A stretch of 64,000 bases of DNA. It comes from a virus. The stretch spans positions 1-64,000 of the IMG/VR virus record IMGVR_UViG_3300024352_000023; one strand, given 5' to 3'. Below, in pieces: positions 47,174-63,285 of this stretch (positions are counted from its first letter, which is position 1; each line of letters begins with the position of its first letter). The notes beneath the pieces are model-generated. The model was not told the origin of the DNA, made no database searches, and saw only the letters and a program-made list of their open reading frames with translations. The position numbers and the translations under genes were made by a program.

Positions 47174-47201
47174 TGGTCAGTTTTACGTCATGACCAGGAC
47201 G
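47174..47201 (-). ncRNA. Leader pseudoknot repeat, copy 1
   Basis: CGUC-C-UGGUCA-U-GACG-UAAAAC-UGACCA. Confidence 0.8.
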
Positions 47202-47909
47202 GCGGAGTACCACACCCGGTGGCGGAGTCAGTCTACCAGGTCAGTCAAGCCCTTAGTCGTGACCTTGACCAGCTCAGAGAGGTAGTCAGTAAGTGCTTCG
47301 ACCTTGGCGTTGACGGATTGGATTTCCTCCATCAGCTCCTCCCTGGAGGGAGTCAAACCAAAGATGTCGTTGTCCTTCAGTGCCTCTGGGTTGTTGGCCT
47401 TTTGGTACCGGCGACAATCATCGTTGGCTGCATAAACAGCATCTGTGAACAACTCATGAGTTGCTTTTAACTCCAAGTATCCAAGATCTTCTTCATCCAA
47501 GATGGCATGTGCACGTTTGTACAACTTGGCAGTAAACCTGATGTTGTCTTCAAAGAACTCCTCGTACTGTTCAGAGGGAAGGCCGTAGGTGTCAATCGAC
47601 ATAACAATCCAAAGCTTCTCGGAGTGCATCAATCATAAAGGTTTCTTGTCCTTCTGGACCTAAGTCGGTCCACCATTGAAGATCAGGATCTTTGTCATCC
47701 CAATCAATACGGATGGTCATGGATCCATCCTCTTCATCAATGCATTCAATCTGTAGCTTGTTGATCGAGTTCGGATTCAACGTGGCCCAAGAGGATGTTT
47801 TCTGCATAGGTTTCACAATCAGTTCTGATCTCTGCACCAAGTTTAATCAGACCCCAGTAGGTATCTTCATTAACCTCAAGGTGCAGAGAATACTTACCAT
47901 TTGAAAGCA

Positions 47910-48854
47910 TCATTGCTTTTTCACAGCGGCTTTGAGTTGTGGCAGAGATACACCAGGAAATGGTGTGTAACCAGCCTCCATCATATTGAAGAAAAGATCC
48001 CAGGCATGGTGCTGCGTGAACACCTCTTGTGGTTTGTACGTACGCCAGTGGGATAGAGGAGCTTGAGCACCAGACTTGGTGTGGAGCAGAACAAAGCGAC
48101 CATCACTGATGTGATCCGAGGGCGGCGCATACCACCAGGCCACACACTTCTCAGGTGTACCGCTGGGACTGGCATTACGGGTATCAGTGCGTTTGCACAG
48201 CAGTTCCCTGTACTTGTTGAACCAAGTCAGGTGTATACACCACGGTTTAAATCCCTGGATTTCTTCTTGGAAAGCAGATAGATTTGAAAGCTGGCGTTGA
48301 AAGGACCCACATGAACAACTAGGTTCACCAAACGAGGACTGTTGTTCTTGCACATCATCCAGTTCACCGTCCATATCAAGCGGCCGATTCGGAAGCCGAA
48401 GTCCGTCAGGCGCAACCAAATGGCCCAGGTCCGTTTGGTCAGACTGAAGGAGTGCTTTGATCTTTTCGGGGTCTGATACATGTATGAACTTATCTGCCCA
48501 ATGGGTTTGGAGTTTTGCATTCGAGGTTAGGTGTCCGAGTGCGTGCGTGTAGTTCCAGCCCTTAAACAATATGTAAGCATTGTTATGCCATACACTAGGG
48601 CCACGATAATTAGGGCCAAGATAAGAAAAGAAATCTTTGAGACGGTGGGTGTAAGAAGAGTAGGCAGCTTTGATTAGCTCCCGTGCGTAAGCCTGCTGAC
48701 TACCATCGCGACGCACCACAACACAATCAGTATCTCGCAGATAGATCCCAGCAATGTCGGTGTCATCAAAGTCTTGGTACGCACGGCGGATGTTCGTCCG
48801 CGTGTAGATGCACGCCTGCGCCGCGTTGAGTTCCTGGAGGATTTGCGTTGACAT
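47910..48854 (-). CDS. SWIM zinc-finger-containing protein
   Basis: CSCGSF...WCIHL. Confidence 0.55.
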   Translation of the reverse strand: MSTQILQELNAAQACIYTRTNIRRAYQDFDDTDIAGIYLRDTDCVVVRRDGSQQAYARELIKAAYSSYTHRLKDFFSYLGPNYRGPSVWHNNAYILFKGWNYTHALGHLTSNAKLQTHWADKFIHVSDPEKIKALLQSDQTDLGHLVAPDGLRLPNRPLDMDGELDDVQEQQSSFGEPSCSCGSFQRQLSNLSAFQEEIQGFKPWCIHLTWFNKYRELLCKRTDTRNASPSGTPEKCVAWWYAPPSDHISDGRFVLLHTKSGAQAPLSHWRTYKPQEVFTQHHAWDLFFNMMEAGYTPFPGVSLPQLKAAVKKQ

Positions 48855-48878
48855 GATTTGAATTGGGTTGAGTTGAGA

Positions 48879-49082
48879 TCAGATGTAAAGGTCATGGTCT
48901 GGAGGAACTGACCTGTCTCTGGAACGTTCGCGAGCCATCTCGCGTGCTGCCTTACCGATACGGTATGAACCGTAGATGACAGCAGCCCATGCCACTGGTG
49001 TGGTTAGGCATGCGGCAATTGTACCAGCAACCAAAACCGTGGCGCCACCAGCAGTGATTGCAGCTTTGTCTTCAGGTTTCAT
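48879..49082 (-). CDS. Small membrane protein
   Basis: Hydrophobic N-terminal half. Confidence 0.45.
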   Translation of the reverse strand: MKPEDKAAITAGGATVLVAGTIAACLTTPVAWAAVIYGSYRIGKAAREMARERSRDRSVPPDHDLYI

Positions 49083-49160
49083 CAGTAATCCTTAATACAT
49101 TTGGAAAGTGGTTGTTGAACTTAACTGTAGAAGTAAAATGTTTGTAACAACTTAATACAG

Positions 49161-49424
49161 ATGGAAGAGATTAAGTACGTACCATTAACTCAGTTCCAGA
49201 TTGAACCAACACTTGATGATAAGTTTTGGCTGGAAAAAATCAAACGATCCATACAAGAATGTGACTCTGTTAGTACCTTGAAAGAAATGGCGACCTTGCT
49301 TGCGCAGATCGCCACGAATCGTCAAGGTGTGATAAGGGGATTGATCCAAGACATGTTCATCTTCAACAATGTTGCAGTTGAACCAAGTGATGTGACCAAC
49401 CCCCAGGTTCCTGGATCAGAGTGA
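49161..49424 (+). CDS. Second NblA-like protein (divergent)
   Basis: EPTLDDKFWLEKIKRSIQECDSVSTLKEMATLLAQ resembles phage-type NblA (TLE-x-x-F-x-L...I...D...L); lone + strand gene with TAAAAT upstream. Confidence 0.4.
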   Translation: MEEIKYVPLTQFQIEPTLDDKFWLEKIKRSIQECDSVSTLKEMATLLAQIATNRQGVIRGLIQDMFIFNNVAVEPSDVTNPQVPGSE

Positions 49425-50432
49425 CTCGTCTTCCCCGGTGAGTTCGTTGCGTGAGGGCAGAGCCTTCACTTCAACGGCATCAGTGGTACGGGAGACGGGC
49501 AGGATCTGCACGCCATCCTTGATTCCATAGGCACCACCAAGACGCTGGGCATCTTGACGGGAGTGCTGGTTGATGTAGTCATCAAACATCTCCTGCATCT
49601 TCCAGGTGGATTCACGATCTTCATCAGGAATCGACAGGCGATTCAAGGATTCGACCGCATCATCCTGGGAGCTGTAATCAGGAATCTCGAAGGATTCGAT
49701 AGCGCAGATCTCAACGTTGTTAGCACCACGCATCTCATTAGCGAGGACGGGAGCAAACACCGTGGTGGCATAGAACTTCTCGTTGAATGCCAGAGGCACT
49801 TCAGAGTCCAGTGCTTTGCTCAGGCACTTGGACATTTCCTTCTCGTACAGCTTGACCTTGTCCGATACGTCGGTGCCGTTGAGACCCTTAAGAGTAAGGA
49901 CCATCGGGATCTTGTGAGCACGCTTGTTGTCCTGGGTCAGGATGTAGACCAGATACTTGGTGCGCACGCTGTACTTGCGCTTGTACATCTCACCTTTGCT
50001 GTTGGCCAGATCAGCGGCCACCTTGTCGTTGTCAAACATGGCTTTGACATCGGGATCTTCAAAGGTGCCAATCGTCTGGCGCATCCCAGTGGTTTCTTCC
50101 ACCATCAGTGGAGAACGCAACAGGATCTGAACGCGGGGTTCAGTGAAGTTGAGACCTTCCTCGATGGAAGTGTTGGGTGCCATGCCAAAGGTTTGCTTGT
50201 AATCCCAGATGACAGAACCTTTGGTGAACTGATCTTCTGTTGCAGTCCAACCGCAGGTATCAAGATCGGACTTACGGACAAACCAACCGCGTACTTTGGA
50301 TTTGTTTAGAGGTTGAATGGTGACAAGATTCTGGTAACCAGAAACAAATTCTTTGGACTGAAACATCCGGAAGGAGTCGAGTCCACGGGTTGCAAGCGCA
50401 GCAGTTTTCTTGGTGGTCATGGAAGAAGTCAT
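49416..50432 (-). CDS. Conserved cyanobacterial/phage protein (DUF5895-like, possibly ssDNA annealing)
   Basis: Adjacent to ssb, with strong codon bias. Start reassigned to MTSSM, 20 nt after pseudoknot copy 2. Confidence 0.45.
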   Translation of the reverse strand: MTSSMTTKKTAALATRGLDSFRMFQSKEFVSGYQNLVTIQPLNKSKVRGWFVRKSDLDTCGWTATEDQFTKGSVIWDYKQTFGMAPNTSIEEGLNFTEPRVQILLRSPLMVEETTGMRQTIGTFEDPDVKAMFDNDKVAADLANSKGEMYKRKYSVRTKYLVYILTQDNKRAHKIPMVLTLKGLNGTDVSDKVKLYEKEMSKCLSKALDSEVPLAFNEKFYATTVFAPVLANEMRGANNVEICAIESFEIPDYSSQDDAVESLNRLSIPDEDRESTWKMQEMFDDYINQHSRQDAQRLGGAYGIKDGVQILPVSRTTDAVEVKALPSRNELTGEDESL

Positions 50433-50452
50433 GGTTGTTTCGTAGTCAGGAG

Positions 50453-50480
50453 TGAGCAGTTTAACGTCATGCTCAGGACG
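50453..50480 (-). ncRNA. Leader pseudoknot repeat, copy 2
   Basis: CGUC-C-UGAGCA-U-GACG-UUAAAC-UGCUCA. Confidence 0.8.
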
Positions 50481-50485
50481 GATCA

Positions 50486-50728
50486 TCAGTCTGCTTTGGA
50501 TCCACCCGCATTCATCACGTACACCTCAGTACTTAATGAATCGAAGTACATCTCAGACAGCTCCTTCATAGCTTCAAAGATGTTGCTTTCCATGTAGCCG
50601 CAACCCTTGAGGAAATCCACAAGGTGTTGCACGACATCATCAGCAACCAGTGCTTTGAATTCGTGGAGGACTTTGGTGTTTTCGTCTTCGTAAAGCAGAG
50701 TGAATTGATCGTGAGTTGGAGTTGACAT
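50486..50728 (-). CDS. Hypothetical protein
   Basis: 80 aa, TGATG-coupled to ssb. Confidence 0.5.
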   Translation of the reverse strand: MSTPTHDQFTLLYEDENTKVLHEFKALVADDVVQHLVDFLKGCGYMESNIFEAMKELSEMYFDSLSTEVYVMNAGGSKAD

Positions 50729-51549
50729 CAGAATGGAAGTTCTTCAAGTTCAGGTGCTGCTCCGTATTGACCGGGCAGATCAGGCAACCCACCACCTGAG
50801 GCCTGGTTCCAGGGATCAGATTGTGTGTTGTTGCTTGCCCATAGGTTAACGGTGTTTTCAGCCGCTGCATTGTTTGTGGTGGATGCCACAGGTTTCACTT
50901 GGGACTCAACTGCACCATTGTCACTGGCCTTAGGAGGCAGGGTGAGATTGGAGACTTGAATCTTGGTAGATGTGCGGCGCTCCTTGGTTGCCTTATCAGT
51001 CCAGGCATCGGTCACCAGCTTGCCGTGAATCGTCAGGCCAACGCCCTTACGGGTGTAGTTGGCAATCAACTCTGCGTTATTCAGGCGATCTTTCGTGGAG
51101 TTGATGGCAAAGAAGTTAAAGAGATCTGCTTTGTTCTTGCCCATGGGGACAGAGAGCGTCTGGTTGCAGATCATCAGACCATCAGCTGTAGTGCGGAACA
51201 CACGCTCATCTGATTCATCGATGTCTTTGATGCAACGACCCGAGAGGATCACATCGTTGAGGATGGGTGTACTTTCAGTAACTTCATACACAATTCCTCC
51301 ATGCAACGAATACGTTCTGGATTGAACGTCGAAACGTAACTTGGCGCTGTGAATGTGCAGACGTGCGCCTGCTTTGTAGGTACGGAATTTCTCACAAGCT
51401 TTACCGTAGACATTGAGTTCAAGTGGAGTGGGTGCTTTGTTACTGACCGGAGGCAGGTTAACGAGAGCACGCAGATTGAATGATGTCTCACTGGTGTAAA
51501 CCTCACGGGGTTCTTCCATGAGGACAGCGCAGACAGATGCGAAGTTCAT
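50728..51549 (-). CDS. ssb: Single-stranded DNA-binding protein (tandem OB folds)
   Basis: NDVILSGR...AELIANYTRKG..LTIHGKLVTDAWTDK.T.ERR; acidic tail ending EELPF. Confidence 0.8.
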   Translation of the reverse strand: MNFASVCAVLMEEPREVYTSETSFNLRALVNLPPVSNKAPTPLELNVYGKACEKFRTYKAGARLHIHSAKLRFDVQSRTYSLHGGIVYEVTESTPILNDVILSGRCIKDIDESDERVFRTTADGLMICNQTLSVPMGKNKADLFNFFAINSTKDRLNNAELIANYTRKGVGLTIHGKLVTDAWTDKATKERRTSTKIQVSNLTLPPKASDNGAVESQVKPVASTTNNAAAENTVNLWASNNTQSDPWNQASGGGLPDLPGQYGAAPELEELPF

Positions 51550-51569
51550 TGATTCAGACGGTAGGTGTT

Positions 51570-51597
51570 AAGGCAGTTTAACGTCATGCCTAGGACG
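51570..51597 (-). ncRNA. Leader pseudoknot repeat, copy 3
   Basis: CGUC-CU-AGGCA-U-GACG-UUAAAC-UGCCU-U. Confidence 0.8.
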
Positions 51598-51602
51598 TGG
51601 CA

Positions 51603-53462
51603 TTAGTGGGTTTGTGCCCAGGTGTAGCCGACGTGAGAGTCGCCTTCAATCTTACAGCGAAACCCAAAGAAGTCTTGTGCTTTCGGGAAGGCAGCCAGTG
51701 CGTGTTCCTGGATGATGGGCACGGTGTTCTCTGGGCAAGACAGCTGCACTTCATCGTGGATCATGGCGTGTTGGATCCAGTCCTTGCCATGCACCAAGCC
51801 AGCTGTTTCCAGTGATTCATGAATGTTGATGACCACTTGCTTCATGAGTACAGCACCTGCAGCTTGGAGCAACACGTTCAATGCTTTGAATTCAGAGCGA
51901 CACCAGAGTGCACGACCATCCAGTCCACGTAAGTAACCACGGTCACAGAGTGCAAGCTCAAGGTTTTGTTTGAGTTTCTTGAGTGCTGGCACACCGTTCA
52001 TAAATCCATTGATGGCGGACTTACCTAGCTGACGCAATGTTTCTGTATCTTTCTCATTCGGATCGATGATGGTACCAGCCTTAATGGCACCACATCCATA
52101 CAACATTCCATACAGCAAACGCTTACTGATGTCCCTCGTCTCTACACCAAATTGTTGTTGGTTATAGGTATGGATATCAATGGATTCATCAGTTACCAGA
52201 TTGGCGTACTCACCGTCATCCCAAACGGCTAGGTACCCTGCAAGACAACGGAGTTCCAATGCTTTAGCATCCACCCCAATGAGATGCCAGTTGTAAGGAG
52301 CGTGAAAAAGATTACGGCATTCCTTGCCATAGGGTGAGTAAGACGCTGGAACCTGACCCATATTTGGATACCGATGGCTACAACGCCCAGTGATACAACC
52401 ATTAGTAACCACGTCCCCGTGAATACATAGATCATCATTGTTGACAAGCTTGAGCCATGCATTGTTTCCATCGGCAATTTGTCCAAGACGTTTTTTGATG
52501 AGCATGTACTCAGCCAGGGGCTGAGCTTCTGGGAATGGAAGCTGTTCTAGAACTTCATCATTAAGGATTGGATTTCCTTTCTCAGTTGTTTTCTCTGGTT
52601 TCCATCCGTACTTTTTCCACAGTCTATTAACAATTTGGTCACGAGATCCAGGATTGAATTCCTCTGACCGTCGTTTAATAAATGGTTGTCCTTTAACATA
52701 ACCACGCTTGCTGTTGTTTACCTTAGGGATAAACGTTTCTTCATGGATGATGGGCGGAAACAATTCCTTTAGATGAGACTCCAGTTCTTCTTGTTTTGCT
52801 CTAAGCACATCCACAAGATCAAGGCATGCATCAACATCAAAAGGAAAACCTGCTCGCACTTGTCTGTTAATTGCCAAGGCAAAGTCATGCTCAAGCTTGA
52901 GCGCTGGTTCCTCATAGTTTTGCCGTGTGATCTGCTCCCAGAGTTTTGTGGTGACCACAACATCCTGGATGCAGTAGTCAAGCATCTCTTGAGAAAATTC
53001 GGAGAAGTCTTTGAAGTTGATCTTGTGATCGGCCAACCTCCATCCCCATGCCTTAAGTGATGCGGATCCACGTAAGTCCTTTGGAACTTGCGGATATTGT
53101 TCGCAGTCCAAGTCATAGAGTCTCTCCTTTGGCCAGATCAGACGTGTGCAGATGAGGGTGTCAAGGATGCGTGCTTTGCAGACGAATTGATGCAGCTTTT
53201 GCAGAACCGGTACGTCATAGAAGATCACGTTGTGACCAATGAGTACATCAGCGGTTGCCAGATGAGCAAGAGCATCAGCAATACGATCAGGCCCATAAGC
53301 AAAAGTTTGTTGTTTGTTGATGTCATAAATCACCAGACAATGAACAACAGAAGCTTTGTCATACAGGCCATCAGTCTCGCAGTCAAAGACTAGCCACGTT
53401 TCATTTACGGAACTGGGCTTCGTCGCGAACTTGGAGTTCTTCACTGGCAAGACTGGTGTCAT
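51603..53462 (-). CDS. polA: Family A DNA polymerase (T7-like) with 3'-5' exonuclease
   Basis: FDCETDG, GHNVIFYD, DAKALELR (motif A), KRLLYGMLYG (motif B), IHDEVQ (motif C). Confidence 0.95.
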   Translation of the reverse strand: MTPVLPVKNSKFATKPSSVNETWLVFDCETDGLYDKASVVHCLVIYDINKQQTFAYGPDRIADALAHLATADVLIGHNVIFYDVPVLQKLHQFVCKARILDTLICTRLIWPKERLYDLDCEQYPQVPKDLRGSASLKAWGWRLADHKINFKDFSEFSQEMLDYCIQDVVVTTKLWEQITRQNYEEPALKLEHDFALAINRQVRAGFPFDVDACLDLVDVLRAKQEELESHLKELFPPIIHEETFIPKVNNSKRGYVKGQPFIKRRSEEFNPGSRDQIVNRLWKKYGWKPEKTTEKGNPILNDEVLEQLPFPEAQPLAEYMLIKKRLGQIADGNNAWLKLVNNDDLCIHGDVVTNGCITGRCSHRYPNMGQVPASYSPYGKECRNLFHAPYNWHLIGVDAKALELRCLAGYLAVWDDGEYANLVTDESIDIHTYNQQQFGVETRDISKRLLYGMLYGCGAIKAGTIIDPNEKDTETLRQLGKSAINGFMNGVPALKKLKQNLELALCDRGYLRGLDGRALWCRSEFKALNVLLQAAGAVLMKQVVINIHESLETAGLVHGKDWIQHAMIHDEVQLSCPENTVPIIQEHALAAFPKAQDFFGFRCKIEGDSHVGYTWAQTH

Positions 53463-54457: not shown

Positions 54458-54492
54458 GGTGTTAAGTTGAGTTGAATGATAAGTAAAACTAA

Positions 54493-54520
54493 TGAGCAGT
54501 TTAAGGACATGCTCAGGTCC
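54493..54520 (-). ncRNA. Leader pseudoknot repeat, copy 4
   Basis: GGAC-C-UGAGCA-U-GUCC-UUAAAC-UGCUCA. Confidence 0.8.
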
Positions 54521-56911: not shown

Positions 56912-57274
56912 TTAGGCAGCTTCTGCAGTGGTGTCTAGGGGCTCGTCTAGGACCCCTGACTCGCGGAGCTTATCGAGCATGCCAACCATAAGTGTGGCGT
57001 GTGCTCTGGTCTGTTCCATGAAGTGCTTAGCACGTTCTGGAGAGATGGTATGGACAGCGCCGTTGGGTTCAACGTAACGCCAGCTTCCATCAGGTTGCGG
57101 TTCACCCTGGAGCGCAAGCCGCTCAGAGTTATGGACGTACCGCATCTCAAGGTTGTGGTAATCCCGCAGACCATCGGAGCTAGTCCATGTAGCACCAAGG
57201 TTGTAGCGATTCTCTTCATCCGCATAAGCGTGGAACTCAGGGATGAGGGACTTAAAGGCAGCAAAGAATTGCAT
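56912..57274 (-). CDS. Hypothetical protein
   Basis: ACUCAACUCAAC leader immediately after tRNA-Leu. Confidence 0.55.
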   Translation of the reverse strand: MQFFAAFKSLIPEFHAYADEENRYNLGATWTSSDGLRDYHNLEMRYVHNSERLALQGEPQPDGSWRYVEPNGAVHTISPERAKHFMEQTRAHATLMVGMLDKLRESGVLDEPLDTTAEAA

Positions 57275-57295
57275 GATGTTGAGTTGAGTGTGGGC

Positions 57296-57371
57296 TGGTA
57301 GCCGACCCCGGATTCGAACCGGGACTTGAGCGATTTTAAGTCGCTTGCCTCTGCCGTTGGGCTAGTCGGCC
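57296..57371 (-). tRNA. tRNA-Leu(UAA), short variable loop, CCA encoded
   Basis: GGCCGAC-UA-GCCCAACGGCAGAGGC-A-AGCGA-CUUAAAA-UCGCU-CAAGU-CCCGG-UUCGAAU-CCGGG-GUCGGCU-A-CCA. Confidence 0.9.
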
Positions 57372-57580
57372 TCACTTGGACTTACCTCTACATCAATGGA
57401 TGTGGAGTGCCAAGTGTGGTCATGGGGTAATGGCTCAGTGCCATACTCCCATGTGTCGTAGTCTTCCTCGTTACGAGGATCGTCTTCAATCAGGATGTAC
57501 TTAGGTGAGTTGTCTGTGATGTACTCACCAATGTTTGCCATTGCCATGGCAAGCAGTTGATCATCTGTGTAATCAGACAT
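57362..57580 (-). CDS. Acidic hypothetical protein
   Basis: 72 aa; the stop codon lies inside the 5' end of the tRNA. Confidence 0.4.
   Translation of the reverse strand: MSDYTDDQLLAMAMANIGEYITDNSPKYILIEDDPRNEEDYDTWEYGTEPLPHDHTWHSTSIDVEVSPSEAD
57373..57416 (-). ncRNA. GGC(A/G)...GUAAGUCC internal-loop hairpin, copy B (abuts tRNA-Leu 5' end)
   Basis: CACUUGG-CA-CUC-C-ACAUC-CAUU-GAUGU-A-GAG-GUAAGU-CCAAGUG. Confidence 0.6.
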
Positions 57581-57630
57581 GAGTTAAAGGGGCATCCCTA
57601 TAACGAGGATAGGATGCCCCTGCTGTGGCT

Positions 57631-59337
57631 TCAGCTATCAGATGCTAGCTGTTTCTCACGAGATTGCAAGGCTTGCTTGAATGCTTGTGAGTATTGCTCA
57701 CGTTGCTCATCATCAAGGCGTTGGTTTGCAACACCTGCAATCTGAACAACGTTCATGACACCCATGGATACATCCAGCTGGATGGTGAAGGTTGGCTTGC
57801 CATCAATCATGCAGAGCACAATGAAGTGCTTGCGTTTCTTGATGTCTTCTGCATACCTGGATGCAGAGCCAACACAGTTACGTACTGCTTGTCCCCACTG
57901 TGCAAGTTGGTGGGTATCCATTGGCTGGAAGAATGTCCAGTCACTGTCATCCACGTTGACCTTGATTGGTTGAGGGAACAGATCCTGGTGCAATGACTCC
58001 TTACGATTGGTTACCTTCCATGCTTCTGCTTGCACATAGTCATGGAAGTCAGGCATGCGCCAGCGCTTGGGTGCTTCAAGTTCCTTACCATTCTCCAAGA
58101 TACGCATGATCATGGAGAATGTATCATTCATCTCAAAGAATGATTTGACATGGTAGTCGTAATCACTCCATGAGCTACGAAGTGCACCTGTCTCCGTTTC
58201 ATTAAACTTGCGTAGCATATTAAAGAACGATGCAACGGGCGTGTTCTCCTTCAACCATTGGATAAGACGTTCGTCATACCTGAATTGGTTGAGATTAATA
58301 CAACGCAGTTCATTGAAGTATGTACGATAGTGATCAATAGGGCAGTCAGGCCAGATTCGAATAATGAATTCAATAGAATTACAAGTCTGTTCAAATTCCT
58401 TGAAACCATACTTGATAGATTTACGTTGTGTATTTTCTGGACTGTTGTACTCAGTAGTTGAACGATCAAGCATTGCTTGAAGTTGTTTCTTGATATACGG
58501 AGTAGTAATGATTGTTTCAGTCTTGCTTAAACATGTACCGTAAGACGAATAGCCATAGTCATTCTTCAGTAGCTTAGATGTTGCAATTAAGTTATCAACA
58601 GTGAGTTCATACTTGGTCTTGTCAGGTATAGGTTTGCTAAAGAATGCAGGCATGTCGAGTGCATCAACAAGGTTGTTGCAACGCAAGCGATCAAAGATAC
58701 CACGGCTATCAGTCCATTGAGGAATGGTTGTCATCAACTGAGATTCAAACCTATTAATTGTTTCATTAATGTCACGTGCTTTCTGGTAGTAACTAGCAAT
58801 ACCCATGGCACGCCAGTTGCGACTGTCTTTGCCATTGATGATGTCTTGCTTAGTTACTGTTGCAGAGTAAGTAAAGACTTGTGAACCACGACCAATGGTA
58901 TGTGGAGTACAAGTTTCTATTGTCTTGTAAATATGATTTGGAACCTGCTTAGCAGCAGCTGCAGTGTTCTTGAATGCGTAGGCGTAGCCATAGACATAGT
59001 CTTCGCCTTTCTGTGGGAGCCATGCTGCGTACCAGCATTGCTCGAAGTGATAAAGGACAGCGATAGGTACAGTGCGTGCTTGTGAAGTTGCCACGTCCAC
59101 AAGCTTGGTAAACAAACGAATACGCCCTGGTGCTAGCTGTGCATTGATATGATCAATAGCTTCTTGCTGATAGCTGGAGCGTACCACATCTTCAGGGATG
59201 AGATGTGGGATGTTACCCAGTGGATACTTAGCTTTCTTCGTAGCTTTCTTGGGTTGATTGTCTTTGACCAAAGCCTTGAGCTTTGGATCATAAGCAAGCA
59301 GTTCTTGTTGGAGATGAGAGGGAAGTTGGAAATGCAT
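57631..59337 (-). CDS. PcfJ-domain protein
   Basis: FHDYV...LAQWGQAVRNCVGS..Y...FTIQL...VQIAGVAN; start reassigned to MHFQL. Confidence 0.7.
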   Translation of the reverse strand: MHFQLPSHLQQELLAYDPKLKALVKDNQPKKATKKAKYPLGNIPHLIPEDVVRSSYQQEAIDHINAQLAPGRIRLFTKLVDVATSQARTVPIAVLYHFEQCWYAAWLPQKGEDYVYGYAYAFKNTAAAAKQVPNHIYKTIETCTPHTIGRGSQVFTYSATVTKQDIINGKDSRNWRAMGIASYYQKARDINETINRFESQLMTTIPQWTDSRGIFDRLRCNNLVDALDMPAFFSKPIPDKTKYELTVDNLIATSKLLKNDYGYSSYGTCLSKTETIITTPYIKKQLQAMLDRSTTEYNSPENTQRKSIKYGFKEFEQTCNSIEFIIRIWPDCPIDHYRTYFNELRCINLNQFRYDERLIQWLKENTPVASFFNMLRKFNETETGALRSSWSDYDYHVKSFFEMNDTFSMIMRILENGKELEAPKRWRMPDFHDYVQAEAWKVTNRKESLHQDLFPQPIKVNVDDSDWTFFQPMDTHQLAQWGQAVRNCVGSASRYAEDIKKRKHFIVLCMIDGKPTFTIQLDVSMGVMNVVQIAGVANQRLDDEQREQYSQAFKQALQSREKQLASDS

Positions 59338-59366
59338 GAGTTGAGTTCGTAGTTGGTTCGTAGTGT

Positions 59367-59394
59367 TGAGCAGTTTAACGTCGTACTCAGGACG
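59367..59394 (-). ncRNA. Leader pseudoknot repeat, copy 5
   Basis: CGUC-C-UGAGUA-C-GACG-UUAAAC-UGCUCA (U-G wobble in stem 2). Confidence 0.8.
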
Positions 59395-59402
59395 TGATGT
59401 CA

Positions 59403-60143
59403 TTACGATTCAACTGTTAACAATTGAATGTTGTAATGTTTGATCCATTCCACCAGCTTTGCTGTGGCTTCTGGTGACTCCAGACCAATGCATCCACTGG
59501 TACCGGACTCACCGTTGAGTTTGCCCCAGCTTGGATCTTGGTGGAAGCCAAGGGCTGAACGGTTGGTGTTGAATAAAGGAATCACTGGTACCCAGAATCC
59601 TTTACCAAGTTCTGGATCATCGAATGGTGCACGGGCAATGCCGTACCGATCGATGGAGTATGTGCCGATGGGCAGTGGTGATTTGTTGCCAGCAATGTTG
59701 CGATTCGCTGTTTGCTTAGAGGCACGTCCTGTTAGAGCAGGCATGCTATCCAGGACTTGACCGTTGGCAACCAACTGTAGTTTCCAGATTGGATCCTTGG
59801 TTTGCTTAACGGTCTCCTTGGTGCGAATCAGCAACAGCTTTGCTGACGGACGATTGCGTGCAGGTGGGATGGGTACATTGTTCTTGAATTGGATCTCAGG
59901 ACGCTCGGAGCCTGGCTCTGGTGGGGCACCAGGGGTTGGTGTGGCATCGAGGGGTAGCATCCCATCAGGGACGCTGCGAGCCATATCACCAGGCCCTTGC
60001 TCTAGAGGTTGTGAGTACATCAATGAACGCAAGTGATCTTGCTGTTCATTGTGATGAGTAACCATGTTGTTGATGTTGTGGACTGCAACGGCAGATCCAA
60101 CACCAAGTGCAGTTGAGATGAGTGCAATCATTGGTAGTTTCAT
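59403..60143 (-). CDS. Secreted/anchored L,D-transpeptidase (YkuD-like)
   Basis: N-terminal hydrophobic segment; PLPIGTY...LGFH.D...GTSGCIGL catalytic H...C motif. Confidence 0.75.
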   Translation of the reverse strand: MKLPMIALISTALGVGSAVAVHNINNMVTHHNEQQDHLRSLMYSQPLEQGPGDMARSVPDGMLPLDATPTPGAPPEPGSERPEIQFKNNVPIPPARNRPSAKLLLIRTKETVKQTKDPIWKLQLVANGQVLDSMPALTGRASKQTANRNIAGNKSPLPIGTYSIDRYGIARAPFDDPELGKGFWVPVIPLFNTNRSALGFHQDPSWGKLNGESGTSGCIGLESPEATAKLVEWIKHYNIQLLTVES

Positions 60144-60146
60144 TGG

Positions 60147-60536
60147 TTACATGTTACCTGGCCCTGTGGGTGCAGGCGCTGAGTAGTATGCAGGAGCTGC
60201 ATCAAAGTTTCCAGGTCCTGTGCTTGGAGCACGAGGAGGTGGCGGTGGAGGAGTAGGTTGCGGTACAACAGGTTGTTCAACAACAGTTGGAGTTGGTTGC
60301 TGAGTTTGTTGTACTGGTTCTTCTTTGGTTTCAGTTTGGGTCTGGCCGTCTTCTTTGAGCTTGGCTTCCCATTCTTGTTTCGCTTTTACCTGTGGGTCAG
60401 GATCAAGCTTGCCGTCCTGGTCAGGTTGATTATTTGGCATCAATCCACCAATGACCATTTGCATGGTGGCAACACCAGCACAGGCGATGAGGAAGCCAAT
60501 GAAGACTGCGACGCCAAGGATGATCTTTCTTGTCAT
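60147..60536 (-). CDS. Membrane-anchored Pro/Gln-rich protein
   Basis: N-terminal TM helix, Pro-rich linker, twice-repeated TGPGN. Confidence 0.55.
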   Translation of the reverse strand: MTRKIILGVAVFIGFLIACAGVATMQMVIGGLMPNNQPDQDGKLDPDPQVKAKQEWEAKLKEDGQTQTETKEEPVQQTQQPTPTVVEQPVVPQPTPPPPPPRAPSTGPGNFDAAPAYYSAPAPTGPGNM

Positions 60537-60802
60537 CGGCAGAGGTAGTCAGAGCGCATCCAGCCAACGAGTCCGTTGTATTCAACGCGATACCAACGCA
60601 TTTGATCACCGCCCCATACCCAGTCCAATGCCCGGAGGTATTGACTGTTCGGTATGGAGGCGATGACTGTGTTGTTCTTGGATGGGCCATTGCGTAGGTT
60701 GACAGATGAACCAGGGTCCCTGGTACATGTCATGGCCCATTGTGCGTTGGCCGGAAGTGCGATAAAGAAGTTAAGTGCGAGTAGTGAAAGCCAGTGTTTC
60801 AT
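60533..60802 (-). CDS. Secreted bacterial SH3 (SH3b) domain protein
   Basis: Signal peptide ending ANA; VNLRNGPS...VIASIP...WYRVEYNGLVGWMRSDYL. Confidence 0.8.
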   Translation of the reverse strand: MKHWLSLLALNFFIALPANAQWAMTCTRDPGSSVNLRNGPSKNNTVIASIPNSQYLRALDWVWGGDQMRWYRVEYNGLVGWMRSDYLCR

Positions 60803-60822
60803 GGATAGGTAGATACTGTTAA

Positions 60823-60850
60823 TGGGCAGTTTAACGTCATGCCCAGGACA
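60823..60850 (-). ncRNA. Leader pseudoknot repeat, copy 6
   Basis: UGUC-C-UGGGCA-U-GACG-UUAAAC-UGCCCA. Confidence 0.8.
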
Positions 60851-60900
60851 ATGTGTTAAAGAGTTAGAACTTCTTTAACGTATTAGAAGTTATGTGTTAG

Positions 60901-61155
60901 TTAATCATATTCAACGAGTTGCCACTGTGGATCGAGCTGATCAAGATACAGAGCGAAGCCATCTTCGTCAAGAGGAATCGGTTCGTCTGGATCCAGCTCG
61001 ACAGTTGCTGTACAAAGTGCTGGAGCCCACTCTTCAGGATCAAGATGAGTTGCTCGATAGAGTAGGCGCATTTCGTCAACAAGCGCTGTAACAGTGACAT
61101 GAGTTTCAGTGAATTGAACGTCTTCAATAGCAAGGACTGAACAGTAGTTAACCAT
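60901..61155 (-). CDS. Hypothetical protein
   Basis: 84 aa, acidic, TAATG-coupled. Confidence 0.5.
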   Translation of the reverse strand: MVNYCSVLAIEDVQFTETHVTVTALVDEMRLLYRATHLDPEEWAPALCTATVELDPDEPIPLDEDGFALYLDQLDPQWQLVEYD

Positions 61156-61340
61156 TAGCCTTCATCCACGTAGGAATACGTTTTGGTGATGACGCACTTG
61201 TACTTATTCCATGCACGAGCACTGGTGTACTCGGCATTGAAACGTTGTTCGTTAAGTACGTTGGCTTGTGCCCTGCGCACAGCGCATGCAGCAAGATTAA
61301 TTCGATCAAACAAGTTGATGTCGTCGGTGAAAGCAGACAT
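61155..61340 (-). CDS. Hypothetical protein
   Basis: MSAFTDD start after an ACUCAACUCAAAUC leader. Confidence 0.5.
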   Translation of the reverse strand: MSAFTDDINLFDRINLAACAVRRAQANVLNEQRFNAEYTSARAWNKYKCVITKTYSYVDEG

Positions 61341-61362
61341 GATTTGAGTTGAGTTAGTGGAC

Positions 61363-61427
61363 AGAAGCTGGGACTTACACTGCCTCCTTCTGTGCTGTTT
61401 GCACAACGAGTACAGACGCCCAGTTCT
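61363..61427 (-). ncRNA. GGC(A/G)...GUAAGUCC internal-loop hairpin, copy C
   Basis: CUGGG-CG...UGUGC-AAACA-GCACA...GUAAGU-CCCAG; intergenic. Confidence 0.55.
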
Positions 61428-61625
61428 TTAGATTAGCTTAATGTTTGGAATGCTTAGTCCAGTGCCAGGAATACTGACTGATCCTTTGACGCCATTGGGA
61501 CTGGCGTTGAGAGTCAGCTGGAATGGACCAAGCTTGACTGCTTTAGTCAGTGATTTGACACCGTGTTCGGTGATGTTTACACCATGGATGGTGCGATCAA
61601 AACTGATGAGTGATTTCTTAGTCAT
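61428..61625 (-). CDS. DUF4236-like small protein
   Basis: KAVKLGPFQLTLN.S..GV..SVSIPGTGLS. Confidence 0.5.
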   Translation of the reverse strand: MTKKSLISFDRTIHGVNITEHGVKSLTKAVKLGPFQLTLNASPNGVKGSVSIPGTGLSIPNIKLI

Positions 61626-61828
61626 TTGAGATCGTCTGGTAGTAGCGCTTGGGATTCTTCTTCGTCCATATTTGTCATAACAAATTTCTGTCCATCGGGG
61701 GCAATAAAGCCCCCTATGAATCCCATACCAAGACGATCGGATGTTTCCTTCATACGTGCAACTAATTGCATAGCTTGAAGTCTTTGCATATCCATGGAGT
61801 CTGGTATGCGAGGAGTGTTGTTAGTCAT
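61622..61828 (-). CDS. Hypothetical protein
   Basis: MTNNTPR start after a CAUUCACUCCACAC leader. Confidence 0.5.
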   Translation of the reverse strand: MTNNTPRIPDSMDMQRLQAMQLVARMKETSDRLGMGFIGGFIAPDGQKFVMTNMDEEESQALLPDDLK

Positions 61829-61958
61829 TGAGATAGTGTGGAGTGAATGATGAGAGTCTACCAGGCTTGTCAAGGTAAGACCAGGGGTATGTAGATAAAG
61901 GTTCCTTATCTAATATAAGGTTTACCCCTGGTACTCCCCTGCGGGGGTGCAGGGGGGA

Positions 61959-62231
61959 TTACGAGTGCATAGCCTGGTGTTCTTTCCATGCAGCTGCGTG
62001 CATTTCTGCAGCAGTGATAGGTGGTTCACCTAGTTCGTTTGGTGTTGGGTCGTAGTCAAGTTCTTCCTCCAGCATGGAGATGATCTCTTCGACTACACCT
62101 TTGGTATGTGGTGCAAGATGTTCGTCCATCTCATGTCGCTTGCTTTCGCGAGCAAGGACATTCTTAAGGATGGAGCGTACTTCTTCCAGGTAGTAATACT
62201 CGTTTTGTGGATAAGCTTTGGCTTGTTCCAT
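61959..62231 (-). CDS. Hypothetical protein
   Basis: MEQAKAY start after an identical CAUUCACUCCACAC leader. Confidence 0.5.
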   Translation of the reverse strand: MEQAKAYPQNEYYYLEEVRSILKNVLARESKRHEMDEHLAPHTKGVVEEIISMLEEELDYDPTPNELGEPPITAAEMHAAAWKEHQAMHS

Positions 62232-62258
62232 GATTGGTTTGGTGTGGAGTGAATGTAA

Positions 62259-62303
62259 ACCCTGGGACTTACGCACCGTACTTACGTCGATGCTGCCCAG
62301 GGT
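62259..62303 (-). ncRNA. GGC(A/G)...GUAAGUCC internal-loop hairpin, copy D
   Basis: ACCCUGGG-CA-GCAUCG-ACGUAAGUA-CGGUGC-GUAAGU-CCCAGGGU. Confidence 0.6.
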
Positions 62304-62318
62304 ATGTCGGTATAACAC

Positions 62319-62570
62319 TTACGTTGACTTGGGATCAAGCATGATCCAGCCAGTGTAGTTAGCACTGCTTCGGTCAACGCGTATTAAACCGTATTGTTCC
62401 AGTTTGATCAATGCGTTGAGGTATTGATCAAGCCTGGATACTTGAGTTGAACACCGTGGTACATAACACGGTGTGTTCTTATGTCTCTTCTTGTGTGCCA
62501 AGAAGTAGAGATAAATGTTGCGTTGATTGATGGTCAGTCCCCGAACCTGAGGCAGTGCTTCTGTTGTCAT
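62319..62570 (-). CDS. Winged-helix-like hypothetical protein
   Basis: LTINQRNIY.Y...YLNALIKLEQYGLIRVDR. Confidence 0.5.
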   Translation of the reverse strand: MTTEALPQVRGLTINQRNIYLYFLAHKKRHKNTPCYVPRCSTQVSRLDQYLNALIKLEQYGLIRVDRSSANYTGWIMLDPKST

Positions 62571-62938
62571 CAGCAGTAGTGTGGTTTGGATTCGGGGTAG
62601 ACCTTAGCGAAGTCGTTGGCGAAGTTGACTTCGTAGTTGTGGTACGTCGTCGAGAGCCCGAGGCTTGGCTGGTCTGCGATCTCGTACTCGTCGAAGTATT
62701 GGATGAAGGTTTGGACCGCTTGCTTCTTGGAGAAGATGCAATGGGTGAGGACTGGGAGTCCTGCCTGGTAGTACCATCCACCTTCCTCTGGACCGCCGTA
62801 GTTGAGCGTGGTTTCGTGGACGGTGACAGTCGTTGGGTCTTCGTGTTCCCAGTCCTTGTGGGTGTTGTAGCGCTGGATTGCGTAGCGCAACTTGTAGGAC
62901 TTGGGGTAGTACTTCTGGAGTTCAGAGAGGTAAGACAT
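62570..62938 (-). CDS. Hypothetical protein
   Basis: YGGPEEGGWYY motif; TGATG-coupled to the downstream gene. Confidence 0.55.
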   Translation of the reverse strand: MSYLSELQKYYPKSYKLRYAIQRYNTHKDWEHEDPTTVTVHETTLNYGGPEEGGWYYQAGLPVLTHCIFSKKQAVQTFIQYFDEYEIADQPSLGLSTTYHNYEVNFANDFAKVYPESKPHYC

Positions 62939-63025
62939 TGGATTGCGTCGATGAGTTCAGTGATCAGGATTAAGATGATAGCGATGATAACAATGACGAT
63001 GTCAGTGTCATCTTGCTGAGTGTGC

Positions 63026-63235
63026 TTAGCTTTGGTCATCGTGAAAGTCCTCCATTGGTTCGATGAATTGGAATTCGGATTGATCTGCTTCTCGCATGGC
63101 TTCTTCTAGTTCGTGTGCACGATCAGCCATGGCGTCAAGCAAGTCAGAGTTGTAGTTGTTATCAAGATCTGCCATTGATTCGTCGGCAAGCCAAGGAAAC
63201 ATGGCATCTTCTTGAAGCATGTCAATGTTTGTCAT
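63026..63235 (-). CDS. Acidic hypothetical protein
   Basis: 69 aa, D/E-rich, 22 nt after pseudoknot copy 7. Confidence 0.5.
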   Translation of the reverse strand: MTNIDMLQEDAMFPWLADESMADLDNNYNSDLLDAMADRAHELEEAMREADQSEFQFIEPMEDFHDDQS

Positions 63236-63257
63236 GGTTTGAATTGAGTGAATTGGC

Positions 63258-63285
63258 TGAGCAGTTTAAGGACATGCTCAGGTCC
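63258..63285 (-). ncRNA. Leader pseudoknot repeat, copy 7
   Basis: GGAC-C-UGAGCA-U-GUCC-UUAAAC-UGCUCA (identical to copy 4). Confidence 0.8.

Follow-up and report, generated by a model that had tools for sequence, protein, structure and literature searches.

A 28-nt motif that recurs seven times on the minus strand of a viral genome segment is predicted to fold, in each copy, into a self-contained H-type RNA pseudoknot, and it belongs, as judged by sequence comparison, to a very large family that spans many bacterial phyla, is not phage-specific and is absent from Rfam. The segment, hereafter the window, is the whole 64,000-nt stretch analyzed (positions 1 to 64,000 of IMG/VR virus record IMGVR_UViG_3300024352_000023). 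Across the family, the motif is tied more tightly to the end of the upstream gene than to the leader of the downstream gene, and its context points to a cis role at RNA ends. The best, if tentative, explanation is that the knot may act as a roadblock between cistrons, defining and protecting RNA ends, above all that of the upstream cistron at its 3′ side.

Seven copies of the motif in the window

All seven copies occupy exactly the positions given in the original prediction (Table 1). A degenerate pattern allowing up to three mismatches retrieved 7 copies versus 0 in shuffled sequences, and a geometry-only scan, in which the pseudoknot layout was searched with AA[AC] at the end of loop 3 as the sole sequence constraint, retrieved exactly the same seven versus 0.6 in shuffles. 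No copies beyond these seven were found in the whole 83,145-bp virus record. The predicted distances to the downstream ATG were correct for every copy, as was the location of three copies 5–8 nt past the upstream stop, and Pfam searches bore out the names proposed for the neighboring genes (Gp157, DUF5895, SSB, GP88, PcfJ, and SH3). A Pfam search with the 69-aa ORF downstream of copy 7 gave no match. Neither a U-run nor an adjacent tRNA accompanies any of the seven copies.

Table 1. Copies of the 28-nt motif in the window, with flanking genes and orthologous copies
Copy	Position	Strand	Motif features	Upstream stop to motif	Motif to downstream ATG	Orthologous copies
1	47174..47201	-	CGUC CU GGUCA U GACG UAAAAC UGACC A	26 nt	18 nt; 37-aa ORF, then Gp157-like gene	S-EIV1 (L008:27656)
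2	50453..50480	-		5 nt (tandem TGA TGA)	20 nt; DUF5895-like gene	S-EIV1 (L008:24406)
3	51570..51597	-		5 nt; family A DNA polymerase	20 nt; ssb	S-EIV1 (L008:23062); also L009, L015, L113, and others
4	54493..54520	-	S1 GGAC/GUCC	75 nt	35 nt; GP88-like gene	S-EIV1 (L008:19973), S2 CAAGCA/UGCUUG
5	59367..59394	-	G-U pair in S2	8 nt; YkuD-domain gene	29 nt; PcfJ-like gene	S-EIV1 (L008:14766), ahead of homologous 1758-nt gene
6	60823..60850	-	U-G pair opens S1	46 nt	20 nt; SH3-domain gene	
7	63258..63285	-	28-mer identical to copy 4	30 nt	22 nt; 69-aa ORF	

Whether the motif is always intergenic, as had been claimed, hinges on the choice of start codon for copies 2 and 5. ATGs that overlap the upstream stop (TGATG, TAATG) lie 3 nt ahead of copies 2, 3, and 5, and such in-frame ATGs would put copies 2 and 5 within longer ORFs. 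In the S-EIV1 orthologue of copy 2, the longer frame, read by hand, is closed by a TAA within the motif, and we therefore favor reading the motif as non-coding.

Covariation on the sense strand

The motif consists of a first stem (S1) of 3–4 bp, a CU loop 1, a second stem (S2) of 5 bp, a 1-nt junction, and an NNAAAC loop 3. Paired cells made up 91% of the alignment, compared with 79% in shuffles, and double-sided changes numbered 146, compared with 59; none of the 500 shuffles reached the observed values, and slid controls paired only 22–46%. Finds made without sequence constraint added more compensatory variants of both S1 and S2. Pair 3–14 swaps between A-T and T-A in 108 of 108 copies. The ratio of G-U pairs to A-C mismatches was 37:16 among viral copies and 46:12 among genome copies, and G-U pairs are tolerated on the sense strand only. 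The earlier proposal that selection acts on a sense-strand RNA pseudoknot is thus upheld.

The H-type topology and the compensatory changes of the originally drawn architecture stood, but its sixth S2 pair did not. The outermost pair (columns 6–28) forms in only 56% of 108 sequences, with a mutual information of just 0.04–0.11 bits in two distinct motif sets (100 and 117 unique members), and because it is unsupported, we assign 5 bp to S2 and CU to loop 1. Position 28 is unpaired, and it is A in 66 of 108 copies. The A-run of loop 3 probably occupies the S1 minor groove. S2 alone is weak (-3 to -7 kcal/mol, with an 11-nt loop). The upstream flank is unconserved, and the 60 nt downstream show no conservation beyond a depletion of G, which affects the ~20 nt downstream of the motif. 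The conserved loops are a feature that blocking of 3′ exonucleases alone leaves unaccounted for, since a plain GC-rich hairpin would suffice for that purpose.

A family spread across phages and bacterial phyla

Copies of the same motif turned up in 137 isolate phage records; scans of IMG/VR and of bacterial genomes yielded at least 116 and at least 120 contigs, respectively, the latter drawn from many phyla. Its hosts include phages of Firmicutes, Actinobacteria, cyanobacteria, and alpha- and gamma-proteobacteria, as well as chromosomes of many bacterial phyla; a search of 5,426 E. coli genomes, sensitive to near-identical copies only, did not find it. The genes downstream are likewise diverse, encoding replication proteins, capsid proteins, tRNAs, Rrf2 regulators, and many others. 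As the original prediction had supposed, the motif is not a named Rfam family: cmscan with the 4227 covariance models of Rfam 15 matched no family to it. In the window, only two tRNAs scored above the gathering threshold, and the best sub-threshold match over a copy was snoRNA noise (E = 1.2).

This distribution contradicts the notion of a regulon private to the early/middle arm of one phage. Because the motif spans many phages and bacterial chromosomes, a phage-specific regulator is very unlikely, including the phage SSB that had been suggested as its binder: the family occurs in bacteria and in phages with other SSBs, and six of the seven copies precede other genes.

Positional rules across the family

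Eighty viral copies lie no more than 15 nt from the stop of an upstream ORF; all of them start at least 4 nt past it, most often at 5 nt. The same limit applies in bacterial genomes, except for 3 of 110 copies, which start within 2 nt of the stop. In the geometry of a terminating ribosome, 5 nt past the stop is the closest position that the ribosome need not unwind. The motif-to-start distance, by contrast, is broad outside the cyanophage clade and fixed within it. Recruitment of ribosomes to starts without a Shine–Dalgarno sequence (SD), one of the functions initially considered, does not fit this pattern, and many copies are followed by a tRNA, a U-run, or an SD-bearing gene 30–65 nt away.

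What follows the motif varies. A U-run comes immediately after 19% of viral and 29% of genomic copies, compared with 2–12% at control positions. A tRNA starts 2–10 nt downstream of 11 of 286 copies, and likewise in phages Molivia and NMeng1; within tRNA arrays, knots sit at tRNA-like spacings, 1–10 nt from the neighboring tRNAs. RNase P would cut at an adjacent tRNA, so that the knot would be left as a 3′ terminus and removed from the downstream RNA. In two loci (L121 and L014), the knot lies between convergent genes. At ~49 bacterial loci, it is found exactly 7 nt past the last conserved codon of a tiny ORF, followed by varying downstream genes, and many bacterial tiny ORFs extend into the knot. 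In phages of Staphylococcus, Lactobacillus, and Geobacillus, all Firmicutes, it lies immediately ahead of the scaffold and major capsid genes. Pistol ribozymes occur 100–600 nt from motif copies in 3 of 50 viral records. A test of flanking-gene orientation gave a symmetric, noisy result.

RNA contig ends and distribution of RNase J

Assembled metatranscriptome contigs from four assemblies cover the region. Of the contig ends listed, 4 lie no farther than 5 nt from a knot edge, compared with ~0.5 expected, although the ends of assembled contigs are not proof of RNA ends. At copy 1, contigs from two RNA runs end at 47202 and 47208, 1 and 7 nt 5′ of the knot. At copy 2, one contig (49157–50481) begins 1 nt 5′ of the knot, and an upstream piece (50485–50774) halts 5 nt before it. 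At copy 4, a contig (54495–54762) ends at the 3′ edge of the knot. As a control, the end of one contig coincides exactly with the 3′ end of tRNA-Leu. In the deepest RNA run, contigs extend across four copies.

RNase J, proposed earlier as the enzyme that the element would block, was found in 20–21 of 36 motif-bearing genomes and in the control Synechococcus. In 15 of the 36, which include Bacteroidota, Planctomycetes, Omnitrophota, and Zixibacteria and one complete chromosome, no credible RNase J is present, and a Vibrio phage carries a true copy of the motif. For this phage, an xrRNA-like block to RNase J is conceivable; as a function shared by the whole family it is not.

Proposed function and alternatives

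We infer a roadblock function for the motif, and the direction in which it acts, from these results. The knot would be a cis "punctuation" on the long minus-strand early/middle transcript, a compact roadblock placed just beyond the footprint of a ribosome terminating on the upstream gene. Most likely, it would halt 3′-to-5′ exonucleases, leaving the upstream cistron with a stable 3′ end. In this phage, that end could be generated by an endonuclease cut in the G-poor leader; elsewhere, copies with a tRNA behind them could rely on RNase P and copies with a U-run on termination. The stop-spacing limit, the broad motif-to-start distances outside the cyanophage clade, the 7-nt spacing after tiny ORFs, the U-runs, the tRNA-adjacent copies, the convergent loci, and the contig ends all suggest such a role. 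The original idea that the element carves stable sub-operonic mRNAs thus survives in modified form, with the motif linked more tightly to where the upstream gene ends than to the downstream leader. Several observations go against the roadblock. The contig that starts 1 nt 5′ of copy 2 looks as if the knot headed the downstream RNA, and the placement before scaffold and capsid genes in Firmicutes phages suits a 5′ stabilizer equally well. The seven copies of this phage have neither U-run nor adjacent tRNA and are bridged in four cases by the deepest RNA run, a plain GC-rich hairpin would be enough against 3′ exonucleases, the flanking-gene test came out symmetric and noisy, and tiny ORFs run into the knot.

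The 5′ stabilizer just mentioned, put forward in the original prediction, is an unlikely alternative, in which the knot would become the 5′ terminus after cleavage or trimming, block entry of RNase J or of 5′-end-dependent RNase E, and stabilize the following gene. Besides the contig at copy 2 and the capsid-gene placement, it could draw on the fixed position of the knot 18–35 nt before the ATG in this clade, ahead of the G-poor leader, and on the presence of RNase J in cyanobacteria and Firmicutes, which served as search controls. Against it, RNase J is missing from 15 of the 36 motif-bearing genomes, the Vibrio phage has a true copy, RNase P would sever copies located 2–10 nt before tRNAs, and there is nothing downstream to protect at U-run copies or between convergent genes.

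We regard as doubtful a processing signal in which the coaxial S1/S2 stack and the unpaired, mostly A residue would mimic a tRNA acceptor/T arm and direct RNase P and/or RNase Z to cut its edges, splitting polycistronic RNA as tRNAs do in mitochondrial transcripts. The knots within tRNA arrays at tRNA-like spacings, the resemblance of position 28 to a discriminator base, the contig ends at both knot edges, and the spread over many phyla, as expected of a universal enzyme, are all consistent with it, and the nearby pistol ribozymes suggest a shared processing neighborhood. Its difficulties are that the stack has just 9–10 bp versus 12 in the tRNA arm, that loop 3 fills the place of a free 3′ tail, and that the motif went unseen in E. 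coli, which has RNase P, by the search for near-identical copies. We give similarly low credence to a broader view of the motif as a universal, protein-independent "punctuation mark" in transcripts of prokaryotes and phages, either a tRNA-arm mimic directing RNase P/RNase Z cuts between cistrons or a minimal catalytic relative of pistol, that in anaerobic bacteria would double as a programmed obstacle to ribosomes, set exactly 7 nt downstream of a conserved 16-aa His/Cys peptide.

A translation insulator seems improbable. Here, the knot would stop post-termination ribosomes from sliding or reinitiating and keep upstream coding RNA off the downstream initiation region, allowing independent initiation on an open leader. 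The minimum stop-to-knot spacing fits the geometry of the ribosome, the knot would block initiation at the stop-overlapping ATGs ahead of copies 2, 3, and 5, and the ~20 nt downstream are G-depleted; yet copies located ahead of tRNAs or U-runs, and those between convergent genes, are left unaccounted for, and the distance to the next start is unconstrained outside one clade.

Less credible still is a transcription element in which S2 would be an intrinsic terminator hairpin or a hairpin-stabilized pause, strengthened by S1 and loop–stem triples. U-runs follow S2 directly in 19–29% of family members, but in 0 of the 7 copies here, four of which the deepest RNA run bridges; S2 alone is weak, and a terminator scan placed no site at any of the seven.

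It is very improbable that the motif is a minimal self-cleaving or otherwise catalytic relative of pistol ribozymes. The catalytic residues of pistol are carried by P2, P3, and the internal loop, all of which the motif lacks. P1, the A-rich linker, and the loop pseudoknot are arranged as in real pistols, one of which (L257) has the linker letters TTAAAC, and contigs end at the motif edges. Occurrence in several phyla, a pseudoknot, and invariant residues are together criteria for biochemically sophisticated RNAs (PMC5737381), and the motif shows all three. The flanks, however, are unconserved, cmscan yielded no Pistol match at E up to 10, and 28 nt is far below the size of any known natural self-cleaver.

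A DNA-level element, be it a promoter or the operator of a dimeric protein, is scarcely plausible. Like phage promoters, the 28-nt repeat is intergenic, oriented in the sense direction, and located 18–35 nt before starts, and BPROM predicted a promoter over one other copy (B166), but the compensatory changes are interleaved, pair 3–14 swaps in all 108 copies, G-U pairs are tolerated on one strand only, and the upstream flank is unconserved. Sigma-70-like sites numbered 18 versus 22 expected and were not aligned with the copies, and the post-stop exclusion zone is an RNA/ribosome feature.

Three further candidates found no support: frameshift or read-through recoding (read-through frames of 0–18 codons, tandem stops before copies 2 and 5, and no consistent frame relation to the next gene), a metabolite riboswitch (downstream genes too diverse, with no single pathway), and a gene 32-type autoregulatory operator (seven sites, six before non-SSB genes, in a family shared by bacteria and unrelated phages).

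Comparison with known systems

As modeled here, the core of the motif is laid out like the P1/pseudoknot core in the Pistol ribozyme (RF02679), minus the catalytic arm. Pistol also has a hairpin of 4–5 bp, a loop that pairs over 5–6 bp with a downstream strand, and an A-rich linker, which reads TTAAAC in L257:1501–1562. However, ~9–11 nt (the P2 5′ strand and the internal loop) separate the linker from the pseudoknot strand in Pistol, which is then followed by the cleavage site, P3, and the P2 3′ strand, whereas in the motif S2′ comes directly after the linker and none of these parts is present. Searched with cmscan, copy 2 and the B166 copy gave no Pistol match at E up to 10, and the window gave none at the gathering level (34.5 bits).

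Three other compact pseudoknots are also comparable. Luteovirus (BWYV-type) frameshift knots are H-type knots of 26–28 nt whose 2-nt loop 1 starts with C, whose junction is 1 nt long, and whose A-rich loop lies in the S1 minor groove; their stability is very high for such a small size, and they serve as ribosome roadblocks. The motif differs in lying outside a reading frame, without a slippery site, and shows no sequence relationship to them. The preQ1-I riboswitch, the smallest known, is likewise an H-type knot with an A-rich loop 3, but the 1-nt loop 2 of the motif has no room for a ligand-recognition residue, no Rfam match was found, and its highly diverse downstream genes are unrelated to queuosine. 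The T2/T4 gene 32 leader, to which the motif had been likened, resembles copy 3 in that a compact H-type knot and then an unstructured leader precede an ssb-type gene. The likeness holds for topology and nothing beyond it: gene 32 has a single autoregulatory site bound by gp32, compared with seven motif copies before unrelated genes. Rfam holds no gene 32 model (PMC10690425).

Theta (minimal HDV-like) ribozymes lie beside phage tRNA genes and have a proposed role in RNA end processing (PMC10879173). Like the motif, they are small structured RNAs embedded beside such genes. Theta ribozymes are self-cleaving nested double pseudoknots of ~50 nt found downstream of tRNAs, whereas the motif lies mostly upstream of tRNAs and has no evident catalytic core. 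The MALAT1-type 3′ triple helix with its tRNA-like RNA has a layout like that of the motif subset, an A-rich, triplex-type element 2–10 nt before a tRNA that would yield an RNase P-made, protected 3′ end; as a eukaryotic lncRNA element with another fold, it offers an analogy only. Finally, the function proposed for the motif is also that of REP elements and the T7 RNase III sites that leave 3′ hairpins, repeated, sense-oriented intercistronic structures in long transcripts that set and protect RNA ends; they are long hairpins rather than a 28-nt pseudoknot that has invariant loop residues.

Seven Copies in the Early/Middle Arm

The 28-nt motif, modeled as an H-type RNA pseudoknot composed of stem S1, loop 1, stem S2, a 1-nt junction, and loop 3 (NNAAAC), occurs at the seven predicted places on the minus strand, which is also the strand of the adjoining genes. 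A degenerate pattern allowing up to three mismatches recovered these seven copies and no others, compared with none in 100 shuffles, and a geometry-only pseudoknot scan again gave exactly these copies, shuffled genomes averaging 0.6. No further copies were found in the remainder of the virus genome, whose IMG/VR record comprises 83,145 bp. The original prediction was correct about how far off the downstream ATGs lie and about three short spacers behind upstream stop codons, and Pfam agrees with the gene names Gp157, DUF5895, SSB, GP88, PcfJ, and SH3. Genes upstream of the copies include those for a family A DNA polymerase and a YkuD-domain protein (Pfam). The YkuD and SH3 genes are cell-wall-related, which is unusual for an early/middle arm.

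At copies 2 and 5, the frame of an ATG overlapping the upstream stop codon is open through the knot into the next gene, giving alternative, longer ORF calls. The G-poor leaders between knot and ATG of copies 1, 4, 5, and 7 carry repeated CAACU/CAACUC units, as do the leaders of related loci (L042, L047, L112, and L113), and a CA-rich leader like these lies behind the copy of the T4-like cyanophage S-H35 (L253:1528-1554). Such repeats may serve cyanophages specifically as a signal for SD-independent initiation.

Positions of the motif copies and associated features (L-numbers denote motif-bearing loci or contigs retrieved from viruses or bacteria)
Feature	Sequence	Position	Strand	Remark
Motif copy 1	window	47174-47201	-	
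Motif copy 2	window	50453-50480	-	
Motif copy 3	window	51570-51597	-	
Motif copy 4	window	54493-54520	-	
Motif copy 5	window	59367-59394	-	
Motif copy 6	window	60823-60850	-	
Motif copy 7	window	63258-63285	-	
YkuD (L,D-transpeptidase) domain protein	window	59403-60143	-	early/middle arm
Small SH3-domain protein	window	60533-60802	-	early/middle arm
ATG overlapping upstream stop (TGATG or TAATG)	window	50484-50488		3 nt ahead of copy 2
ATG overlapping upstream stop (TGATG or TAATG)	window	51601-51605		3 nt ahead of copy 3
ATG overlapping upstream stop (TGATG or TAATG)	window	59401-59405		3 nt ahead of copy 5
Leader with CAACU-type units	window	54458-54492		copy 4
Leader with CAACU-type units	window	59338-59366		copy 5
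tRNA-Leu(UAA)	window	57296-57371	-	inside early/middle gene array
tRNA-Pro(UGG)	window	41852-41925	+	
Tiny ORF	L217	1320-1367	+	example; tiny-ORF loci range from L126 to L244
Tiny ORF	L186	5458-5505	+	example
Tiny ORF	L142	4322-4375	-	example
Dense motif cluster	L097	345-527	-	
Dense motif cluster	L231	251-3994	+	
tRNA-Thr, knot, tRNA-Ala, knot, tRNA-Ser	L097			all inside about 400 nt
Pistol ribozyme	L255	1501-1567	same as motif	IMG/VR record; 50-66 bits for the three
Pistol ribozyme	L256	1501-1567	same as motif	IMG/VR record
Pistol ribozyme	L257	1501-1562	same as motif	IMG/VR record

Covariation Supports an RNA Pseudoknot

The closest isolate, the freshwater Synechococcus phage S-EIV1 (KJ410740), shares about 70% nucleotide identity with the virus across the replication module and carries the element at five orthologous sites, ahead of the pcfJ, Gp88, ssb, DUF5895, and Gp157-peptide homologues. 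Its copies contain new compensatory stems, such as CAAGCA/UGCUUG, UGUC/GACA, and AGUC/GACU. A scan of IMG/VR and GTDB species genomes with a pattern for part of the motif returned at least 116 and at least 120 stretches, respectively. Pair 3-14, a position left free by the pattern, was Watson-Crick in all 100 unique viral motifs, split almost evenly between A-U and U-A. Mutual information reached 0.25-0.64 bits at pairs 1-16, 7-27, and 8-26, and was at most 0.13 in non-pair controls. In an alignment of 108 sequences, the interleaved structure paired 91% of cells, compared with 79% in shuffles and 22-46% when slid, and double-sided changes numbered 146 versus 59 in shuffles; none of 500 shuffles matched the observed values. 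Additional copies found by geometry in the same contigs differed even at positions fixed by the pattern, with compensation, and their stems include CAUC/GAUG, UCUC/GAGA, ACAC/GUGU, GGACA/UGUCC, and GAACA/UGUUC. The predicted RNA structure with compensatory stem changes is thus borne out by covariation that exceeds all shuffled and slid controls. G-U pairs outnumber A-C mismatches on the sense strand (37:16 in viral and 46:12 in genome copies), an excess that argues for action as a single-stranded sense molecule, that is, as RNA.

Stem 2 had been predicted to comprise 5-6 bp. Five of these pairs hold, but the outermost, 6-28, is unsupported, which leaves S2 with 5 bp, loop 1 as CU, and position 28, usually A, unpaired. 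The residues constant across the family (C4-G13, C5, mostly U6, A11-U23, A19-A21, and C22) are all grouped about the helical junction. By itself, each stem has little stability (-1.4 to -7.3 kcal/mol), from which we infer that coaxial stacking and contacts between loops and stems probably hold the fold together. In a subset of copies, comprising L246:2527-2545 and many of Firmicutes type (L033, L090, L150, L205, and L229), a conserved AUGC (TTTTTATGC) stands behind a U-run that follows the knot. This AUGC is complementary to GCAU, which spans the 3′ end of S2a and the junction, and an alternative pairing or switch is therefore possible.

The Motif Is Widespread in Phages and Bacteria

With one copy as query, blastn found the motif in 137 isolate phage records, 83 of which are staphylococcal siphoviruses. 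The intergenic region of the B166 copy matched 85 staphylococcal phage records, including phiETA, phiNM4, 80, 96, 52A, and phiMR11. In these records the motif always separates the minor head gene from the scaffold and major capsid genes, and in Lactobacillus phage phiEF-1.1 and Geobacillus phage D6E a copy lies directly ahead of scaffold and capsid. The motif is also present in Mycobacterium phage Labelle, Arthrobacter phage Molivia, Paracoccus phage ParMal1, Nostoc phage NMeng1, S-H35, and Vibrio phage D456. Bacterial hosts of the motif include Firmicutes, Patescibacteria, Desulfobacterota, Omnitrophota, Planctomycetes, Zixibacteria, cyanobacteria, Bacteroidota, and Chloroflexi, among others. 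No gamma- or betaproteobacteria appeared by name among the 120 matches listed, and E. coli genomes gave no match to a 32-nt query that could pass near-identical copies only. Some contigs contain dense clusters, and one Selenomonadaceae contig has six copies inside 3.8 kb. The motif is therefore not a regulon private to this phage. A protein search for relatives guided by the SSB found one close contig only, and all-against-all BLAST of 3,996 ORFs from motif loci revealed no protein cluster common to motif-bearing contigs that might be a partner, a result of little weight because the loci are short.

At about 49 bacterial loci, a tiny ORF has its last conserved codon exactly 7 nt ahead of the knot. 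This ORF encodes 16-30 aa, has a strong Shine-Dalgarno sequence of its own, and follows the consensus M-x-R-F/Y-M-I/L-P-R-V-A-H-C-x-x-G-C/H; synonymous CGN/AGR arginine codons show it to be coding. The place of its stop codon, before or inside the knot, and the downstream gene both differ among loci. The roughly 49 carrier genomes belong to Desulfobacterota, Omnitrophota, Planctomycetes, Zixibacteria, Clostridia, and others, and in Planctomycetes and Omnitrophota the next gene encodes an Rrf2-type regulator. The peptide matched no family in Pfam or NCBIfam; it could be metal- or redox-related, or a stalling leader. In many anaerobes this His/Cys ORF keeps its place 7 nt ahead of the knot, and it makes a separate, testable lead.

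Placement Points to a Possible Roadblock on Polycistronic RNA

Among 80 viral copies within 15 nt behind an ORF stop codon, none starts less than 4 nt from the stop, and the modal spacing is 5 nt. Unrelated lineages and bacterial genomes keep this rule, with the exception of three of 110 genome copies. When the A site holds a stop codon, mRNA exits from the entry channel of the ribosome approximately 5 nt farther on. By this geometry, the modal spacing places the knot as near to the stop as it can lie without being unwound by the terminating ribosome. The spacing limit is a constraint at the RNA level and suggests that ribosomes have difficulty opening the knot. A U-run directly follows 19% of viral and 29% of genomic copies, compared with 2-12% at control positions. 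Far above chance, 11 of 286 copies have a tRNA starting 2-10 nt past the knot, an arrangement also seen in Molivia and NMeng1.

These features fit a cis-acting roadblock on polycistronic RNA, which, needing no protein, would punctuate the transcript by defining or protecting RNA ends. Proximity to upstream stops, U-runs, tRNAs behind the knot, placement between convergent genes (L121 and L014), and linkage to the tiny ORF lead us to favor, tentatively and at somewhat less than even odds, a role in protecting the upstream cistron at its 3′ end. RNase P cleavage at a tRNA behind the knot would leave the knot as the 3′ end of the upstream RNA. We keep alive the alternatives that the knot is a 5′ protector, a processing signal, or an insulator: copy 2 has one metatranscriptome contig starting at its 5′ edge, the knot precedes capsid genes in Firmicutes phages, many bacterial tiny ORFs extend into it, and 3′ protection leaves the conserved loops unexplained. 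As to a 3′ versus a 5′ role, the orientation of flanking genes gave symmetric counts dominated by ORF-calling noise.

The region is present in four riverine metatranscriptome assemblies, from which we used neither uncovered stretches nor depth figures. Contig ends at 47202, 50481, 50485, and 54495 each lie no more than 5 nt from a knot edge, against an expectation of about 0.5 such ends for the pieces listed. Another contig stops exactly at the 3′ end of tRNA-Leu (57296), indicating that contig ends can mirror processing; as these are assembled contigs and not reads, the ends near knots are only a hint. Between 50394 and 50435, RNA contigs of four runs diverge from the window, with loose ends on each side, in what looks like a strain variant that has other sequence in place of about 40 nt where the DUF5895-like gene begins.

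Blockage of RNase J, as originally proposed, may operate in a cyanobacterial host. It cannot explain conservation of the family, since, of 36 motif-bearing genomes, only 20-21 gave a credible RNase J hit to a family model, those lacking it being from Bacteroidota, Planctomycetes, Omnitrophota, and Zixibacteria and including a complete 3.8-Mb chromosome, and since a Vibrio phage carries a good copy. Given the distribution over unrelated phages and bacteria, no regulator that this phage encodes, the suggested SSB included, can be the general partner. Ribosome recruitment, the third proposal, is contradicted by the U-runs and tRNAs behind knots and by knot-to-start distances that are narrow (20-24 nt) in the cyanophage clade only and broad in other lineages. 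A sigma-70 promoter was rejected: upstream sequences are not conserved, sigma-70-like sites are neither enriched nor aligned, and the covariation is strand-specific. A riboswitch was likewise rejected, from the gene context.

The motif would provide a direct handle on how phages without RNases of their own cut and stabilize long polycistronic transcripts, and it offers a natural 28-nt insulator or stabilizer part for synthetic operons. Isolates workable at the bench carry it, including S. aureus phages of the phiETA, phiNM4, and 80 types, mycobacteriophage Labelle, Arthrobacter phage Molivia, and cyanophage S-EIV1.

Comparison With Known RNA Families

As anticipated, cmscan at gathering thresholds against Rfam 15 found two tRNAs in the window and no family covering the motif. 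Rfam scans of copy 2 and the B166 copy at E-values up to 10 gave noise only, and a scan of 20 loci at gathering thresholds gave tRNAs only. Text searches of the literature found no description; they did not cover every catalogue of candidates, so an earlier description is possible. Our findings suggest a new family relative to Rfam 15 and the searchable literature, on a known kind of fold. If truly undescribed, it would be among the smallest and most widespread conserved RNA structures of phages and bacteria.

In shape, the motif resembles luteovirus frameshift knots, which are 26-28 nt long; recoding was excluded at the window copies. When 50 motif-bearing viral records were searched with the Pistol model, three true pistol ribozymes were found, two of them near-identical, 100-600 nt away from a motif copy, a nearness whose weight depends on the base rate of pistol in IMG/VR. 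On the plan shared with the motif, pistol has a 5-bp P1, whose six loop bases pair with a downstream strand, and behind P1 an A-rich linker, which in L257 is TTAAAC, identical to loop 3 of the motif. Unlike the motif, pistol has an extra segment between linker and pseudoknot strand as well as later helices, and the flanks of the motif are not conserved. The motif thus acts as the folding core of pistol does, without belonging to that class. It is a possible evolutionary scaffold for the pistol ribozyme.
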